This document shows positions 9,782-55,493 of a DNA stretch of 55,493 bases, one piece after another; position 1 is the first letter of the stretch, and each line of letters starts with the position of its first letter. The position numbers and the translations under genes were made by a program. The notes under the pieces were generated by a model that did no database searches, was not told where the DNA came from, and saw nothing but the letters and a program-made list of their open reading frames with translations. This DNA comes from a virus (taxonomy: Duplodnaviria > Heunggongvirae > Uroviricota > Caudoviricetes): the IMG/VR virus record IMGVR_UViG_2663763400_000006. One strand, 5' to 3'.

Positions 9782-10080
9782 CGGGCAAAGAGGCAATTAT
9801 TCATTACCTGGGGACGCATAAGAGCTTCTGTGCACAGGACGTTGCCGCGGTAACAGGCGCAACCGTAACCAGCATAAATCAGGCTGCGGCTAAAATGGCG
9901 CGGGCAGGAATCCTGGTCGTTGATGGTAAGGTCTGGCGAACGGTGTATTACCGGTTCGCTACCAGAGAAGAACGGGAAGGAAAGGTGAGCACGAATCTGA
10001 TTTTTAAGGAGTGTCGCCAGAGTGCCGCGATGAAACGCTTATTGAGGGTATATAAAAGAACATCAATGGGTACACAATGA
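9778..10080 (+). CDS. ren: Ren
   Basis: MTGKEAIIHYLGTHKSFCAQDVAAVTGATVTSINQAAAKMARAGILVVDGKVWRTVYYRFATREEREGK matches lambda Ren as recalled. Confidence 0.85.
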   Translation: MTGKEAIIHYLGTHKSFCAQDVAAVTGATVTSINQAAAKMARAGILVVDGKVWRTVYYRFATREEREGKVSTNLIFKECRQSAAMKRLLRVYKRTSMGTQ

Positions 10081-10147
10081 TGAAACAGGTGAGTTGATTT
10101 CAAACTGTAGTACAATTCTCTCCAGTTTGAACAGGAAAGAATATGCT

Positions 10148-10736: not shown

Positions 10737-12263
10737 ATGAAAAAAGCCATAGCATATATGCGATTTTCATCACCAGGTCAGATGTCTGGCGACTCATTAA
10801 ACCGACAGAGAAGACTTATTGCTGAATGGTTAAAGGTAAATAGTGATTATTATCTTGATACCATAACATATGAAGATTTAGGATTAAGTGCATTCAAAGG
10901 AAAGCATGCACAATCAGGAGCTTTTTCGGAATTTTTAGATGCTATAGAGCATGGTTATATATTGCCAGGAACTACATTGTTAGTTGAAAGTCTGGACAGA
11001 CTTTCAAGAGAAAAAGTCGGTGAAGCGATTGAGCGTCTGAAATTGATTTTGAATCACGGTATTGATGTTATAACTCTTTGCGATAATACAGTCTATAATA
11101 TTGACTCTTTGAATGATCCATATTCATTAATAAAAGCCATACTTATAGCACAAAGGGCAAATGAAGAAAGCGAGATAAAGTCAAGTCGGGTTAAATTATC
11201 ATGGAAGAAAAAACGGCAGGATGCACTGGAGTCAGGCACGATTATGACGGCGTCTTGTCCGAGATGGCTCTCCTTAGATGACAAAAGAACGGCTTTTGTT
11301 CCAGACCCCGACAGGGTGAAAACTATTGAGCTAATTTTTAAACTCAGGATGGAAAGGCGCTCATTGAATGCAATAGCCAAGTATTTAAATGATCATGCTG
11401 TAAAGAATTTCTCAGGAAAAGAAAGTGCATGGGGACCTTCTGTAATTGAAAAATTATTAGCGAATAAAGCTCTGATAGGTATATGCGTACCTTCATATCG
11501 TGCAAGAGGTAAAGGAATAAGTGAAATCGCTGGCTATTATCCCAGAATCATATCAGATGATTTGTTTTACGCTGTGCAGGAAATTCGGTTGGCACCTTTT
11601 GGTATTAGCAATAGTAGCAAAAATCCTATGTTGATAAATCTACTTCGAACAGTTATGAAGTGCGAGGCTTGTGGTAATACCATGATTGTTCATGCGGTAT
11701 CTGGAAGTTTGCATGGCTATTATGTTTGTCCGATGAGAAGACTGCATCGATGTGACAGGCCATCAATAAAGAGAGATTTGGTTGATTATAATATCATTAA
11801 TGAGTTGCTTTTTAATTGTAGTAAAATCCAACCAGTTGAAAACAAGAAAGATGCTAATGAAACTTTAGAGTTGAAAATTATTGAGCTCCAGATGAAAATT
11901 AATAATTTAATTGCTGCATTATCTGTTGCGCCTGAAGTTACCGCTATAGCAGAAAAAATCAGAGTATTAGATAAGGAATTACGAAGGGCTTCTGTATCAT
12001 TAAAAACTTTGAAGAGTAAAGCGGTGAGCTCACTTGGTGATTTTCATGCTATTGACTTAACCAGTAAAAATGGGCGAGAGCTATGTCGTACACTTGCCTA
12101 TAAAACATTCGAAAAAATCATAATCAATACAGATAATAAAACCTGTGATATCTATTTTATGAATGGCATTGTTTTTAAACACTATCCTTTAATGAAAACA
12201 ATATCCGCCCAGCAGGCGATAAGTACTCTCAAATATATGGTTGATGGTGAGGTTTATTTTTGA
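10737..12263 (+). CDS. Large serine recombinase (DLP12 YbcK-like)
   Basis: 508 aa with N-terminal resolvase/invertase catalytic domain (AYMRFSSPGQ...SLNRQ) and a Cys-rich recombinase region (CEACGNTMIVH...YYVCPMRRLHRC); AT-rich. Confidence 0.85.
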   Translation: MKKAIAYMRFSSPGQMSGDSLNRQRRLIAEWLKVNSDYYLDTITYEDLGLSAFKGKHAQSGAFSEFLDAIEHGYILPGTTLLVESLDRLSREKVGEAIERLKLILNHGIDVITLCDNTVYNIDSLNDPYSLIKAILIAQRANEESEIKSSRVKLSWKKKRQDALESGTIMTASCPRWLSLDDKRTAFVPDPDRVKTIELIFKLRMERRSLNAIAKYLNDHAVKNFSGKESAWGPSVIEKLLANKALIGICVPSYRARGKGISEIAGYYPRIISDDLFYAVQEIRLAPFGISNSSKNPMLINLLRTVMKCEACGNTMIVHAVSGSLHGYYVCPMRRLHRCDRPSIKRDLVDYNIINELLFNCSKIQPVENKKDANETLELKIIELQMKINNLIAALSVAPEVTAIAEKIRVLDKELRRASVSLKTLKSKAVSSLGDFHAIDLTSKNGRELCRTLAYKTFEKIIINTDNKTCDIYFMNGIVFKHYPLMKTISAQQAISTLKYMVDGEVYF

Positions 12264-47235: not shown

Positions 47236-50719
<3,484 letters not shown>

Positions 50720-50786: not shown

Positions 50787-51386
50787 ATGCGTAAATTATG
50801 TGCTGTTATTCTGTCCGCAGTAGTCTGGCTGGTTGCCGCTGGTACGCCAGCGAGCGCAGCAGAGCATCAGTCCACACTAAGCGCCGGGTATCTTCAGACC
50901 CATACTGATATGCCAGGCAGTGATGACCTGAAGGGCATTAACGTGAAATACCGTTATGAATTTACGGACACGCTGGGGCTGGTGACGTCATTCAGTTATG
51001 CCAATGCCAAAGATGAGCAAAGAACGCATTACAGCGATACCCGCTGGCATGAAGATTCAGTGCGTAACCGCTGGTTCAGCATGATGGCGGGGCCATCTGT
51101 ACGCGTGAATGAATGGTTCAGTGCTTATGCGATGGCAGGTGTGGCTTACAGCCGTGTTTCGACGTTCTCCGGGGATTATCTCCGCGTAACTGACAACAAG
51201 GGGAAAACGCACGATGTGCTGACCGGAAGTGATGACGATCGCCACAGCAACACGTCTCTGGCGTGGGGAGCTGGCGTGCAGTTTAACCCGACCGAATCCG
51301 TGGCCATTGATATTGCTTATGAAGGCTCCGGCAGTGGCGACTGGCGCACTGACGGTTTCATCGTGGGTGTCGGTTATAAGTTCTGA
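50787..51386 (+). CDS. lom: Outer membrane protein Lom (Ail/Lom family)
   Basis: 199 aa with signal peptide; matches lambda Lom as recalled. Confidence 0.9.
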   Translation: MRKLCAVILSAVVWLVAAGTPASAAEHQSTLSAGYLQTHTDMPGSDDLKGINVKYRYEFTDTLGLVTSFSYANAKDEQRTHYSDTRWHEDSVRNRWFSMMAGPSVRVNEWFSAYAMAGVAYSRVSTFSGDYLRVTDNKGKTHDVLTGSDDDRHSNTSLAWGAGVQFNPTESVAIDIAYEGSGSGDWRTDGFIVGVGYKF

Positions 51387-51407: not shown

Positions 51408-51440
51408 ATGACAGCCCGCCGGTTCAGGCGGGCTTTTTTG
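51408..51440 (+). terminator. Rho-independent terminator after lom
   Basis: agcccgccggttcaggcgggct followed by tttttt. Confidence 0.55.
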
Positions 51441-51450
51441 TGGAGTGGAT

Positions 51451-53826
51451 ATGGCAGCAGTAAAAATCTCAGGTGTGCTGAAAGATGGTGCGGGAAAACC
51501 AATACAGAACTGCACTATTCAACTGAAGGCAAAGCGTAACAGCACCACGGTACTGGTGAACACGGTGGCTTCTGAAAATCCGGATGAAGCCGGACGTTAC
51601 AGCATGGATGTTGAGTATGGCCAGTACAGCGTCACCCTGCTGGTTGAAGGTTTTCCGCCTTCACATGCCGGGACCATTACCGTCTATGAAGGCTCCAGAC
51701 CAGGTACGCTGAATGATTTTCTCGGTGCCATGACGGAAGATGATGTCATGCCGGAGGCATTGCGTCGTTTTGAGGAAATGGTGGAAGAAGCGGCACGCAA
51801 CGCTGAAGCCGCCTCTCAGAGCGCAGCGGCGGCAAAGAAATCCGAAACTGCAGCGGCATCATCGAAGAACGCGGCGAAAACCTCAGAAACGAATGCAGCT
51901 AATAGTGCACAGGCGGCAGCGACCTCAAAGACTGCATCGGCAAACTCCGCGACAGCAGCCAAAAAATCAGAAACCAACGCGAAAAATAGCGAGACAGCCG
52001 CAAAGACGAGCGAAACCAACGCAAAGTCCAGCCAGACGGCAGCGAAAACCAGCGAAACGAATGCCAAAGCCAGTGAAACTGCGGCAAAAAACAGCCAGGT
52101 TGCAGCAGCCCAAAGCGAGAGCGCGGCAGCCGGTTCTGCGACTTCAGCAGCTGGATCAGCAACTGCTGCGGCTAACAGCCAGAAAGCTGCGAAGACGAGT
52201 GAAACTAACGCAAAGTCCAGCCAGACGGCAGCGAAGACCAGCGAAACGAATGCCAAAGCCAGCGAAACTGCGGCGAAAAACAGTCAGGATGCAGCAGCCC
52301 AAAGCGAGAGTGCTGCAGCTGGTTCTGCAAGCGCGGCGGCTGCTTCTGCCACTGCATCAGCCAACAGTCAAAAAGCAGCAAAAACCAGTGAAACCAATGC
52401 AAAGACAAGCGAGACTGCAGCGGCGAACTCGGCGAAAGCATCGGCAGCAAGCCAGACAGCAGCTAAAGCAAGTGAAGACGCAGCCAGAGAGTATGCAAGT
52501 CAGGCAGCAGAGCCGTATAAATATGTCTTACAGCCGCTGCCTGATGTGTGGATACCATTTAACGATTCGCTGGATATGATTACGGGCTTTTCGCCATCAT
52601 ATAAAAAAATTGTTATTGGTGACGATGAAATAACGATGCCTGGCGACAAGATTGTTAAGTTTAAACGTGCATCGAAAGCAACCTATATTAACAAATCTGG
52701 TGTGCTGACAGAGGCTGCCATTGACGAGCCACGATTTGAACGTGATGGCCTGCTTATTGAGGGGCAAAGAACAAACTACATGCTCAATTCGGAAAGCCCT
52801 GCAAGTTGGGGGCGATCATCAAATATGGATGTGCCCGAAACAGGGACGGATAATTTTGGTTTTACCTATGGAAAGTTTGTCTGCAACGATTCTCTGATTG
52901 GGCAAACCTCAGCCATTAATATGGCATCAATTGCTGCAACAAAGTCAGTTGATGTCTCAGGCGATAATAAACACGTGACAACCTCATGTCGTTTTAAAAC
53001 AGAACTGCAGGTAAGGTTGCGTATCCGGTTTGATAAATATGACGGTAGCACAACAACTTTTCTTGGTGATGCGTATATTGATACACAAACGCTTGAAATT
53101 AATATGACAGGCGGTGCTGCCTCAAGAATTACAGCGAGAGTCAGAAAGGACGAAGCTACCGGATGGATTTTTGCAGAGGCAACAATTCAGGCAATTGATG
53201 GGGAGTTAAAAATAGGCTCTCAGATACAGTATTCTCCTAAGCAGAGCGGGGCAACCGTATCTGGTGACTATATTTATCTGGCCACCCCACAAGTAGAAGA
53301 TGGGCCTTGTGTATCATCTTTTATTATATCAGGAGCGACGGCGGCGACCCGCGCAAGCGATATAGTTACAGTTCCAATTAAGAATAATCTTTATAATCTT
53401 CCTTTTACTGTTCTTTGTGAGGTACATAAGAACTGGTATAAAACGCCAAATGCAGCGCCACGTGTTTTTGATACCGGCGGTCATCAAACCGGAGCGGCTA
53501 TTATTCTTGGCTTCGGTCGTTCAACAGATTACGACGGATTTCCTTATTGCGATATTGGAGGAGCTAACAGACGGGTAAACGAAAACGCATCGCTTGAAAA
53601 AATGGTTATGGGGATGCGTGTAAAGTCAGAGCAGTCTACGTGCTCAGTAAGTAACGGGCATATATCCAGCGAAACAAAAACCACATGGTCCTGTATTCAG
53701 AACACCGCAATTATCCGTATTGGAGGCCAGACTACAGCCGGGTTACGTCATTTATTTGGTCATGTCAGGAATTTCAGAATATGGCACAAGGCATTGACTG
53801 ATGCTCAGGTGGGGGAGTCAATCTAA
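51451..53826 (+). CDS. stf: Side tail fibre Stf with divergent lectin-like C-terminal domain
   Basis: N-terminus MAAVKISGVLKDGAGKPIQNCTIQLKAKRNSTTVLVNTV matches lambda Stf; central Ala-rich tandem repeats; C-terminal third differs from lambda and ends in a LamG/ConA-like pattern (...LRHLFGHVRNFRIWHKALTDAQV). Confidence 0.85.
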   Translation: MAAVKISGVLKDGAGKPIQNCTIQLKAKRNSTTVLVNTVASENPDEAGRYSMDVEYGQYSVTLLVEGFPPSHAGTITVYEGSRPGTLNDFLGAMTEDDVMPEALRRFEEMVEEAARNAEAASQSAAAAKKSETAAASSKNAAKTSETNAANSAQAAATSKTASANSATAAKKSETNAKNSETAAKTSETNAKSSQTAAKTSETNAKASETAAKNSQVAAAQSESAAAGSATSAAGSATAAANSQKAAKTSETNAKSSQTAAKTSETNAKASETAAKNSQDAAAQSESAAAGSASAAAASATASANSQKAAKTSETNAKTSETAAANSAKASAASQTAAKASEDAAREYASQAAEPYKYVLQPLPDVWIPFNDSLDMITGFSPSYKKIVIGDDEITMPGDKIVKFKRASKATYINKSGVLTEAAIDEPRFERDGLLIEGQRTNYMLNSESPASWGRSSNMDVPETGTDNFGFTYGKFVCNDSLIGQTSAINMASIAATKSVDVSGDNKHVTTSCRFKTELQVRLRIRFDKYDGSTTTFLGDAYIDTQTLEINMTGGAASRITARVRKDEATGWIFAEATIQAIDGELKIGSQIQYSPKQSGATVSGDYIYLATPQVEDGPCVSSFIISGATAATRASDIVTVPIKNNLYNLPFTVLCEVHKNWYKTPNAAPRVFDTGGHQTGAAIILGFGRSTDYDGFPYCDIGGANRRVNENASLEKMVMGMRVKSEQSTCSVSNGHISSETKTTWSCIQNTAIIRIGGQTTAGLRHLFGHVRNFRIWHKALTDAQVGESI
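51790..52500 (+). repeat. Tandem in-frame repeats encoding the SETNAK/SQTAAKTSE stf shaft
   Basis: Repeated units such as gcgaaaaccagcgaaacgaatgccaaagccagtgaaactgcggc recur with small variations; they encode AAKTSETNAKSSQTAAKTSETNAKASETAAKNSQ repeats. Confidence 0.7.
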
Positions 53827-54107
53827 TGAAAGATTTAACACTCAAATTTGCCGACAGGGCCGACTTTTCGGCCTTTATGGAGAGTATTGGCTATTATGAT
53901 GACGAGTCGATGCAGGATGATATTCTTATTGACGTGATAGGTAACGCGTACAAAGAAACCGGAGAACTGACTGAAGATGGCGAACCGGTATGTGTTAAGG
54001 AAGACGGATATTTTGTAAACGTGCGCATCATTAATGATTCGCAAATATCGTCATTATTCGATGAATACGTGGTTGCTGTTGAGCATCAACTTCGTGGCTG
54101 GATGTGA
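53826..54107 (+). CDS. Hypothetical acidic protein (not lambda Tfa-like)
   Basis: 93-aa ORF starting at the stf stop. Confidence 0.3.
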   Translation: MKDLTLKFADRADFSAFMESIGYYDDESMQDDILIDVIGNAYKETGELTEDGEPVCVKEDGYFVNVRIINDSQISSLFDEYVVAVEHQLRGWM

Positions 54108-54116
54108 GGAAGAAAA

Positions 54117-55154
54117 ATGGCTACATCGACAGTAATTCCTGATGACATCAAAACGCTAAAATCCGACGTTAGCAAATTAAAAAACGATCAAGGAAGCTAC
54201 GCAACAAAATTATATGTAGACAGCAAAGATGAAATCGTTGGTGACTGGTCTGCTTCATGGTATCAGCAGGTATTGCCAACTAGCGGAGCTATATTTGGGA
54301 GAAAACTCCGCTCAACTCACAGGACGGCAGGTGTTGAGGATGCGTATTGCGAACTATACCTCAAAAAATGGATAGACAGTCCAGGTAACGCAATGGCGCG
54401 CCTTAACCTGAACGATAACGGGACAAACATTTGCTGGGACTCTACCAACCTTTATGGCGGTACGATGATTTTTCCCGGTGACAGCGGATACCTCAAAATG
54501 GGTAACTGCCTTATGTCATACAGCAAGCGTGGAAGTAACGCGCTTATTAAATTTGATTACACCGACACATTACAGATCAAATATGCCAATCATGGGTCAA
54601 CCATGACATTAAACACACAGGGAACCGCTTATGCTGGTGTTACTGCTCAATTGTGGGGCAACTCCAGCCGTCCTGTTGTTTATGAAGTCGGTGTTGATGG
54701 TGGCGCTTATATGTTCTATGCGCAGAAAAATACCGATAACACCTATATGTTAAGCGTTAATGGTGCATGTCATGCCACCACATTTAACCAGCATTCCGAC
54801 CGGGATCTGAAAGACAACATTCAGGTGATCGATAATGCAACCGACCGCATCCGTAAAATGAACGGCTATACATACACGCTTAAAGAAAACGGTATCCCCT
54901 ATGCTGGTGTCATTGCACAGGAAGCTCTGGAAGCAATCCCAGAAGTTGTAGGTTCCGCAATGAAATATCAGGACGGTGCAAGCGGATCGGAAGGTGAAGA
55001 AGGTGAACGTTATTACACAGTAGATTATTCTGGTGTTACTGGCTTGCTTGTTCAGGTAGCCAGAGAGTCAGACGACAGGATAACAGCACTGGAAGAAGAA
55101 AACGCAGAATTAAGACAAAGATTATCTGCAATTGAGGCGGCGCTTGCGTCTTAA
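54117..55154 (+). CDS. Tail fibre/tailspike protein with C-terminal S74-type intramolecular chaperone domain
   Basis: C-terminal SDRDLKDNIQVIDNATDRIRKMNGYTYTLKENGIPYAGVIAQEALEAIPEVV resembles the self-cleaving chaperone domain of endosialidase-type fibres, followed by a coiled-coil tail. Confidence 0.65.
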   Translation: MATSTVIPDDIKTLKSDVSKLKNDQGSYATKLYVDSKDEIVGDWSASWYQQVLPTSGAIFGRKLRSTHRTAGVEDAYCELYLKKWIDSPGNAMARLNLNDNGTNICWDSTNLYGGTMIFPGDSGYLKMGNCLMSYSKRGSNALIKFDYTDTLQIKYANHGSTMTLNTQGTAYAGVTAQLWGNSSRPVVYEVGVDGGAYMFYAQKNTDNTYMLSVNGACHATTFNQHSDRDLKDNIQVIDNATDRIRKMNGYTYTLKENGIPYAGVIAQEALEAIPEVVGSAMKYQDGASGSEGEEGERYYTVDYSGVTGLLVQVARESDDRITALEEENAELRQRLSAIEAALAS

Positions 55155-55193
55155 TAATATTAAGGGGTCGAGCGCCCCGTTTTATTGGGTAGG

Positions 55194-55493
55194 ATGAAAA
55201 TGGATATAACACCTTTCCTTCATGCGCTTTGTGCTGTGGCTGCGCAGCTACTGATTGGTCTTTTTACCGGGAACTGGGCTTACGGGGCGATAGCCGGTTG
55301 TACGTTCTTCATTGCGCGTGAACACACCCAGGCAGAATATCGCTGGATTGAAATGTTCGGGCATGGCAAGCGAATGAATATGCCGTGGTGGGGCGGTTTT
55401 GATCCGCGCGCGTGGGATGTAGCAAGTCTGATGGATTTTGCTGTGCCGGTGGTGGCGTGTCTGCTGGTCTGGCTGTTGGTTAATCGTGGGTGA
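55194..55493 (+). CDS. Hypothetical small membrane protein
   Basis: ORF with two hydrophobic helices (HALCAVAAQLLIGLF, FAVPVVACLLVWLLV); start taken at MKMDITPF. Confidence 0.4.
   Translation: MKMDITPFLHALCAVAAQLLIGLFTGNWAYGAIAGCTFFIAREHTQAEYRWIEMFGHGKRMNMPWWGGFDPRAWDVASLMDFAVPVVACLLVWLLVNRG

Follow-up and report, generated by a model that had tools for sequence, protein, structure and literature searches.

The subject of this analysis is a tail fibre locus in a 55,493-nucleotide stretch of DNA from a virus of the Caudoviricetes (Duplodnaviria; Heunggongvirae; Uroviricota; IMG/VR record IMGVR_UViG_2663763400_000006), which we refer to, at its full length, as the window. Three consecutive forward-strand genes lie downstream of the J gene and of an Ail/Lom gene (lom, PF06316), as placed by the list of open reading frames (ORFs) and by Pfam: the side tail fibre gene stf (51451–53826, 791 amino acids (aa) from its ATG), a 93-aa ORF in the middle of the trio (53826–54107) and a second fibre gene (54117–55154, 345 aa). 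The order and coordinates of all three genes agree with those given by an earlier, first-pass annotation made from the sequence alone. The stf stop codon overlaps the start codon of the 93-aa gene (TAATG), and a 9-nt gap with a GAGGAAG ribosome-binding site leads from the 93-aa gene to the second fibre gene. Each of the three proteins has a full-length match to a PHROG family. We conclude that the outer half of a lambda-type Stf has been replaced here by a widely shared three-gene cassette, in an arrangement already known from other coliphages.

The proximal half of Stf is of lambda type, as the first-pass annotation had it. Residues 1–132 (51451–51846) form the N-terminal collar/anchor domain, with a match to Pfam PF08400 (phage_tail_N) over residues 3–132 (E=7.3e-67, 223.9 bits; gathering score, 26.6), and residues 3–329 are 58.7% identical to lambda orf-401. 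In Ur-lambda the homologous N-terminal part of Stf forms a collar on the tail (PMC12617516). Residues ~105–360 (51763–52530) constitute an Ala/Ser/Lys-rich heptad-repeat coiled-coil shaft (35% Ala, 17% Ser), encoded in part by tandem arrays at 51951–52422 with periods of 189, 42 and 21 nt, all heptad multiples. Overlapping ORFs of up to 279 aa run across the shaft on both strands (51740–52579, forward; 51816–52450, reverse), and AT skew reaches 0.58 in the Ala/Ser/Lys repeat region; these ORFs are most likely compositional artefacts, not genes.

At residue 361 the character of the protein changes. G+C content falls from 0.56 to 0.43, and blastp found no similarity between lambda orf-314 and the C-terminal part of Stf from this residue on, where a match to a different family (NF048003) is found instead; the C-terminus is thus non-lambda, as had been claimed. 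The change falls roughly where, in Ur-lambda Stf, the proximal coiled coil ends and the hinge lies (residues 394–422; PMC12617516). The 431-aa module that begins here can be divided into three parts. Residues 361–444 (52531–52782), starting with QPLPDVWIPF, are conserved, with 71–98% identity between phage lineages as against 23–41% for the shafts upstream of residue 361. Residues 445–634 (52783–53352) are a variable beta-sandwich domain (the "lectin-like head") of the gene transfer agent (GTA) head-spike-fibre family and a candidate glycan-binding domain. Residues 635–791 with the stop codon (53353–53826) form a conserved C-terminal domain (75–92% identity between lineages) with a Laminin_G_3-like signature. 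An alignment of homologues showed that variability is highest in the central domain (455–634) and that the flanks are the most conserved.

The family assignment of the central domain comes from NCBIfam NF048003 (GTA_spike_fiber), which matches residues 435–635 with 50.3 bits against a cut-off of 36, and from a phmmer search of PDB sequences, in which Rcc01080, the head-spike fibre of the Rhodobacter gene transfer agent (RcGTA), matched Stf residues ~405–651 (E=1.1e-7) over Rcc01080 residues 45–286 only. A direct Pfam scan of the central domain returned no matches even at E=10, and hhalign between the three sub-segments of the module found no internal duplication. The Laminin_G_3 profile (PF13385) matches residues 735–787 below threshold (E=1.3e-3, 19.3 bits against 27.6) and over profile positions 98–150 only; the matching sequence belongs to the last ~55 residues of Stf (…LFGHVRNFRIWHKALTDAQV…). 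It is likewise sub-threshold in 22 of 37 module homologues (best E=8.3e-5). A homologue search seeded with the corresponding module of phage EmilHeitz added moderate diversity only and brought in no rV5-type proteins.

Structure prediction with AlphaFold2 (AF2) of Stf residues 355–791, as a single chain with a 37-sequence alignment, gave a confident all-beta model for residues ~444–624 (a pLDDT, or predicted local distance difference test score, of 74–96). The conserved flanks scored below 50 and were not interpreted. In Foldseek searches of the PDB the central domain matched CBM4, legume lectins and a tailspike domain weakly (E=3e-3 to 2e-2, low TM-scores), and a viral library returned homologous tail fibres together with phage proteins annotated "Concanavalin A-like lectin/glucanases superfamily" (E=8e-7 to 8e-4). 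The top PDB matches, chains of ~500 aa from the Pa193 and E217 baseplates, were disregarded, as they superposed with root-mean-square deviations of 8–12 Å over poorly matched columns; we suspect that these chains are a tail sheath protein. Of the LamG/ConA-like tip proposed in the first-pass annotation, a lectin-type, ConA-like fold is moderately supported by the sub-threshold Pfam signature, the AF2 beta-sandwich, the Foldseek matches to ConA-like proteins, CBM4 and legume lectins, and the published models of related fibres described as "galectin-like" or as a "lectin-like head". Laminin_G_3 itself stays under its gathering score, and the confident beta-sandwich is that of the centre, the C-terminal domain with the LamG signature having no confident model.

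The 93-aa protein is acidic and belongs to phrog_1361. The family is narrow: a set of 1.84 billion representatives yields 49 clusters of it at 50% identity. The protein has no match in Pfam or in the PDB, including a search of PDB sequences with the family profile, and its AF2 model reached a pLDDT of only 48.7. Compared with the homologue in phage ESCO3 (6296–6574), the window gene (53826–54104) shows 8 amino acid differences, several of them clustered at residues 71–77, and no synonymous ones (dN 0.041, dS 0, for nonsynonymous and synonymous divergence), a pattern which may be due to recombination over a short patch or to positive selection acting locally. The gene also has a copy, 91% identical, on a 2.8-kb contig of an actinobacterial metagenome-assembled genome labelled Collinsella sp., most likely a mis-binned Escherichia phage contig.

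The second fibre protein can also be divided into three parts. Residues 1–22 (54117–54182) carry a conserved N-terminal "plug" motif (MATSTVIPDDIKTLK...), residues 23–226 (54183–54794) make up the mature fibre body, the presumed receptor-binding part (phrog_4563), and residues 227–345 with the stop codon (54795–55154) comprise a Peptidase_S74 intramolecular chaperone, of the endosialidase/T5 pb1 type, and a C-terminal coiled coil. The resemblance of this C-terminus to a self-cleaving S74 chaperone, pointed out in the first-pass annotation, is well supported: Pfam PF13884 matches residues 227–278 of 345 far above its gathering score (E=7e-14, 52.3 bits against 22), there is a further match to the fibre of phage S16 (PDB 6f45) in its S74-type region, and the Ser-x4-Lys motif at the start of the domain (Ser227-Asp-Arg-Asp-Leu-Lys232) is intact. 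Ser227 and Lys232 presumably form the catalytic dyad, as we take from established knowledge of the S74 family (Schulz et al. 2010). Self-cleavage is predicted at Ser227 and would leave a mature protein of ~226 aa. The body shows weak similarity to segments of the T4 gp34 and P1/P2 fibres, returned nothing in a direct Pfam scan even at E=10 and has the greater part of its length in common with only 13 phage records. The isolation hosts of these phages are uninformative as a clue to the receptor, the closest ones having been isolated on rough K-12 strains (ESCO3 on DH5α, JenP1 on MG1655).

The same gene order, a fibre ending in the ~430-aa module, a ~92-aa gene and a second fibre gene, recurs behind unrelated N-terminal anchors. 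Carriers include the Nonagvirus ESCO3, the Drexlerviridae phage tunus, a P2-like prophage, the T5-like IrisVonRoten, the Dhillonvirus KarlBarth and lambdoid phages. By tblastn the module is present in 230 phage records, with a homologue of the 93-aa gene adjoining it in 181; Kuravirus was absent among the matches listed of the 230 module-bearing records. The second fibres of different lineages are 45–73% identical over their first 22 residues and ~25% identical, which is background, beyond; alleles diverge after residue ~15–20. In six lineages the gene directly after the 93-aa gene opens with T-x-IP-x-[DE]-I-x-x-LK. The travelling unit comprises the module, the 93-aa gene and ~20 N-terminal residues of the second fibre; lambdoid, T1-like, T5-like, Dhillonvirus, Nonagvirus and P2-like phages all have it. 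In sequence comparison the boundaries of the cassette are sharp, one at Stf residue 361 and the other at about residue 20 of the second fibre. The first-pass annotation had described two distinct distal fibre modules, a view that probably does not hold, as module, 93-aa gene and plug move as one unit in at least six lineages with unrelated tails.

Beyond the plug, the distal part is exchangeable. Among 80 lambdoid loci the distal gene occurs as at least two alleles behind the same plug (346 and 234 aa, both with S74), and across carriers the S74-type fibres measure 346, 234, 245 or 574 aa. In the P2-like prophage the distal gene encodes a fibre of the gp34/gp37 type and is followed by a Caudo_TAP chaperone of its own, and in KarlBarth a short protein is followed by a Phage_tail_C_2 protein. 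The plug's only constant partners across lineages are the module and the 93-aa protein. In some related loci the distal gene is truncated, to 90, 189 or 323 aa. In the lambdoid phage 4A7 (907–5779) stf is truncated as well; downstream of it lie three genes annotated "mobile element protein" and then a 93-aa gene homologue and the small membrane protein, without a second fibre. This locus is a cassette broken by insertion sequences.

The lambda chaperone gene tfa is missing from the window, as the first-pass annotation had noted: a tblastn search of the whole window with lambda Tfa gave E=0.2 at best, and blastp no match. Just outside, relatives do retain pieces of it. In a prophage of E. coli FDAARGOS_1296 the cassette from Stf residue ~367 (window 52550–55154) is 100% identical to that of the window, and tfa pseudogene fragments start ~20 nt beyond the point where the window ends. 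There, two fragments (9964–10083 and 10956–11161) lie either side of a gene for an S-adenosylmethionine-dependent methyltransferase, with alpha/beta hydrolase, ompT, ybcH and nfrA genes further on; phage 2G7b contains similar tfa remnants. The fragments look like what is left of a lambda-type stf-tfa distal unit that has been displaced, accompanied by moron cargo, and their position downstream of the cassette is consistent with displacement of the ancestral unit.

As a whole, the window is a prophage similar to Escherichia phage 2G7b (Nesevirus, NC_049954), whose integrase region equals the first 1,154 bases. From stf to the second fibre gene the locus is 99.9% identical to 2G7b (gp22–gp24), and Tritos, HannyBb and PhiR63_1 show 98.1–98.4% nucleotide identity over the whole locus. 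These four phages share with the window the flanking J and lom genes and the small membrane protein downstream; their records call the trio only a tail protein, a hypothetical protein and a tail fiber protein, and a literature search by phage name (2G7b, Tritos) returned nothing relevant. Of 5,426 complete E. coli genomes, 394 (~7%) carry at least 80% of 52550–55154, the stretch that takes in the Stf module, the 93-aa gene and the second fibre gene. A scan of GTDB species representatives, made with narrow search patterns, found three loci only, all effectively Escherichia. Ratios of nonsynonymous to synonymous substitution rates (dN/dS) of 0.06–0.30 show that all three genes are under purifying selection.

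Because module, 93-aa gene and plug move together across at least six lineages, and because no tail-attachment domain was recognised in the second fibre by Pfam or PHROG, we favour, with moderate confidence, the interpretation that a single, composite side tail fibre is built from the products of the three genes, and not two independent fibres. Stf trimers would anchor on the tail by their lambda-type collar and reach out via the coiled-coil shaft. At residue 361 the lambda distal half, together with the Tfa chaperone, would have been replaced by the horizontally acquired cassette. In its 431-aa head the variable central beta-sandwich domain, related to the capsule-binding RcGTA fibre, probably binds a surface polysaccharide, and the conserved flanks would form a joint. 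We infer that the 345-aa protein docks on this head by its first ~20 residues and serves as an exchangeable distal receptor-binding segment or branch; its docking partners would be the module and the 93-aa protein, since the plug travels with them onto unrelated tail tips and baseplates. It would fold with the help of its own C-terminal S74 chaperone, cleaved off at Ser227, and a chaperone of its own would make Tfa unnecessary. For the 93-aa protein the likeliest role is that of an assembly factor or a small subunit tied to the Stf head, and to the head rather than to the junction with the plug, because a homologue accompanies the head in the rV5-like phage EmilHeitz, where the first 50 kb, with the annotated structural genes, showed no gene bearing a plug.

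Several points weigh against a composite fibre. The EmilHeitz arrangement is one of them, as it implies that the head can by itself serve as the terminal receptor binder and that the module does not depend on a second fibre docking to it. Our AF2 models are of single chains only, and the published attachment in IrisVonRoten, the closest parallel, is itself an AlphaFold-Multimer prediction. Neither the conserved flanks of the module, which would form the joint, nor the 93-aa protein yielded a usable single-chain model. The ConA/LamG assignment of the head, finally, is sub-threshold in Pfam, and its PDB Foldseek matches are weak.

A bolder extension of the composite fibre, which we put forward tentatively and regard as rather doubtful, is that the head (361–791), the 93-aa protein and the ~20-residue plug make up a portable three-part docking standard, in which the 93-aa protein is a clamp present in the virion. 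If this were true, any plug-bearing binder, whether S74-type or Tfa-dependent, could be mounted on the tails of unrelated siphoviruses and myoviruses, and each fibre would offer two receptor-binding sites, one in the variable lectin head and the other in the exchangeable distal fibre.

Among the alternatives, the one that survives best, unlikely as we consider it, makes the 93-aa protein not a chaperone but a structural adaptor that bridges the Stf head and the plug in the virion, as a small counterpart of the T4 hinge protein gp35. The invariable place of its gene between both fibre genes, with start and stop codons close to those of its neighbours, would fit such a role, as would the purifying selection acting on it. 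However, the homologue in EmilHeitz accompanies a head with no plug-bearing fibre in the first 50 kb, which ties it to the head and not to the junction, and the protein has neither a structural model nor a match to a known family.

Two independent fibres, with the Stf head as the sole tip of one and the 345-aa protein forming a separate short fibre elsewhere on the tail tip, appear improbable to us. EmilHeitz, in which the head ends a fibre (PMC12143355) and the first 50 kb hold no plug-bearing gene, would be compatible with this arrangement, and the docking invoked by the composite reading is deduced indirectly. However, the 345-aa protein has no recognised tail-attachment domain; moreover, plug and module have moved together into siphoviruses and into a P2-like myovirus with unrelated tips and baseplates, which makes a lineage-specific docking site on the tail unlikely.

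That the downstream genes are non-functional recombination leftovers in a decaying prophage, as the frameshift in the window's J gene (see below), the fragmentary tfa and truncated distal genes of related loci and the broken 4A7 cassette might suggest, is very improbable given three intact reading frames both here and in the plaque-forming phages 2G7b, Tritos, HannyBb and ESCO3, dN/dS of 0.06–0.30, an intact S74 catalytic motif and the presence of most of the region in 394 complete E. coli genomes.

The neighbouring genes upstream differ from lambda as well. The first 833 residues of J are 96.6% identical to lambda J, whereas identity drops to 51% over the last ~300 residues and to about one third over the terminal ~150 (50270–50719), the Pfam family (Ig_GpJ_C) remaining unchanged; the first-pass annotation had described this terminus as non-lambda. 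The divergence suggests that the receptor of the central fibre is probably not LamB as in lambda. The Lom homologue (50787–51386) is a full-length member of the Ail/Lom family with only 45% identity to lambda Lom. The region comprising the J tip, lom and distal stf is non-lambda throughout, and the swap of host-range determinants suspected in the first-pass annotation is borne out by the divergent J tip, the replaced distal half of Stf and the loss of tfa.

In the window J is split into two ORFs (47239–49746 and 49664–50719) by a one-base insertion within 49690–49790 (GAGCTGCTGGACG versus GAGCTG-TGGACG in intact gpJ), located at the junction where the 5' part, which is lambda-like, meets the divergent 3' part. 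Unlike in the window, J is intact in 2G7b, and it is also intact in E. coli FDAARGOS_1296. The 401-bp stretch around the junction had no full-length match above 96.5% identity among the matches listed in 5,426 complete E. coli genomes. The frameshift could be a sequencing error, the mark of a defective prophage or an out-of-frame recombination junction.

A terminator-like hairpin precedes stf (51413–51434) and is stronger than the one after the second fibre gene (55164–55178, forward strand), a weak candidate from a consensus scan only. Further downstream, a 102-aa hydrophobic protein (55185–55493, phrog_1443, without a Pfam family) closes the window, the last base of which is the last base of its stop codon. 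Its gene also follows the cassette in 2G7b and in the 4A7 locus disrupted by insertion sequences, and it may be a moron or membrane protein.

Taken together, these results identify the host-range apparatus of an E. coli prophage type that is common. They also define precise natural swap points, one at residue 361 of Stf and one near residue 20 of the distal fibre, which could guide the design of lambda-based delivery particles with exchangeable receptor binders. Conceptually the results add little, as the lectin-like head, the S74 chaperone and the layout of a proximal and a distal fibre have already been described for homologues in the BASEL collection.

Among known systems, the Stf/Tfa pair of Ur-lambda (PMC12617516) shares with the window its N-terminal collar and coiled-coil shaft and likewise lies after J and lom, whereas its hinge, its gp37-like distal domain and its separate Tfa (Caudo_TAP) are replaced here from residue 361. 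A relative of the head is found outside tails, in the head-spike fibre Rcc01080 of RcGTA (PDB 6tb9), a flexible protein of which only residues 2–10 are resolved, with a lectin-like AlphaFold model and demonstrated binding to capsule (PMC7296036, PMC10218006). It resembles Stf ~405–651 in sequence and in its beta-rich, lectin-like character. In contrast to the window domain, which is fused to a trimeric shaft, Rcc01080 is a stand-alone 325-aa monomer seated on capsid pentons by an N-terminal Ile/Leu-Gly repeat, and this repeat lies outside the alignment.

For a fibre carrying another fibre, the branched lateral fibres LtfA/LtfB of the T5-like phages DT57C and DT571/2 provide a genetic precedent (PMC4728585, PMC10713586). 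In principle DT57C is alike, in that a second fibre without a tail anchor is carried by the first and S74 is present; however, both of its Ltf proteins have S74, while here only the second protein does, and its docking elements are of the phiEco32 gp14/gp15 type, which we set against the module and plug of the window by description only. The lateral fibre of EmilHeitz (Vequintavirus) has been reported to end in a "lectin-like head", pseudo-domain D69, by RBPseg and cryo-EM (PMC12143355). We infer that the protein called RBP_10 in that study is the 1478-aa fibre in which we find a C-terminal module 45% identical to that of the window over 433 aa, followed by a homologue of the 93-aa gene. The difference is that the module ends a myovirus fibre, and that the first 50 kb contain no plug-bearing second fibre.

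The closest parallel is IrisVonRoten (Bas32, Tequintavirus; Humolli et al. 2025, PMC11990801), with the same order of Gp22, small Gp23 and a T-shaped distal Gp24. In the AlphaFold-Multimer model of that study, Gp24 "attaches to" Gp22, which has a protruding "galectin-like domain". The C-terminal ~435 aa of Gp22 are 63% identical to the window module and the small proteins 39% identical to each other, and both distal fibres begin with the same N-terminal motif and end with an S74 chaperone. IrisVonRoten differs in its T5-type anchor and in a distal fibre of 574 aa with Gp12-like and T5-like receptor-binding domains; the distal fibre of the window has 345 aa, with a body only ~26% identical to that of IrisVonRoten, which is background, so that beyond the N-terminal motif the two have only the S74 domain in common. 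We conclude that the locus is an ordinary and widespread member of a fibre architecture already described in related coliphages.

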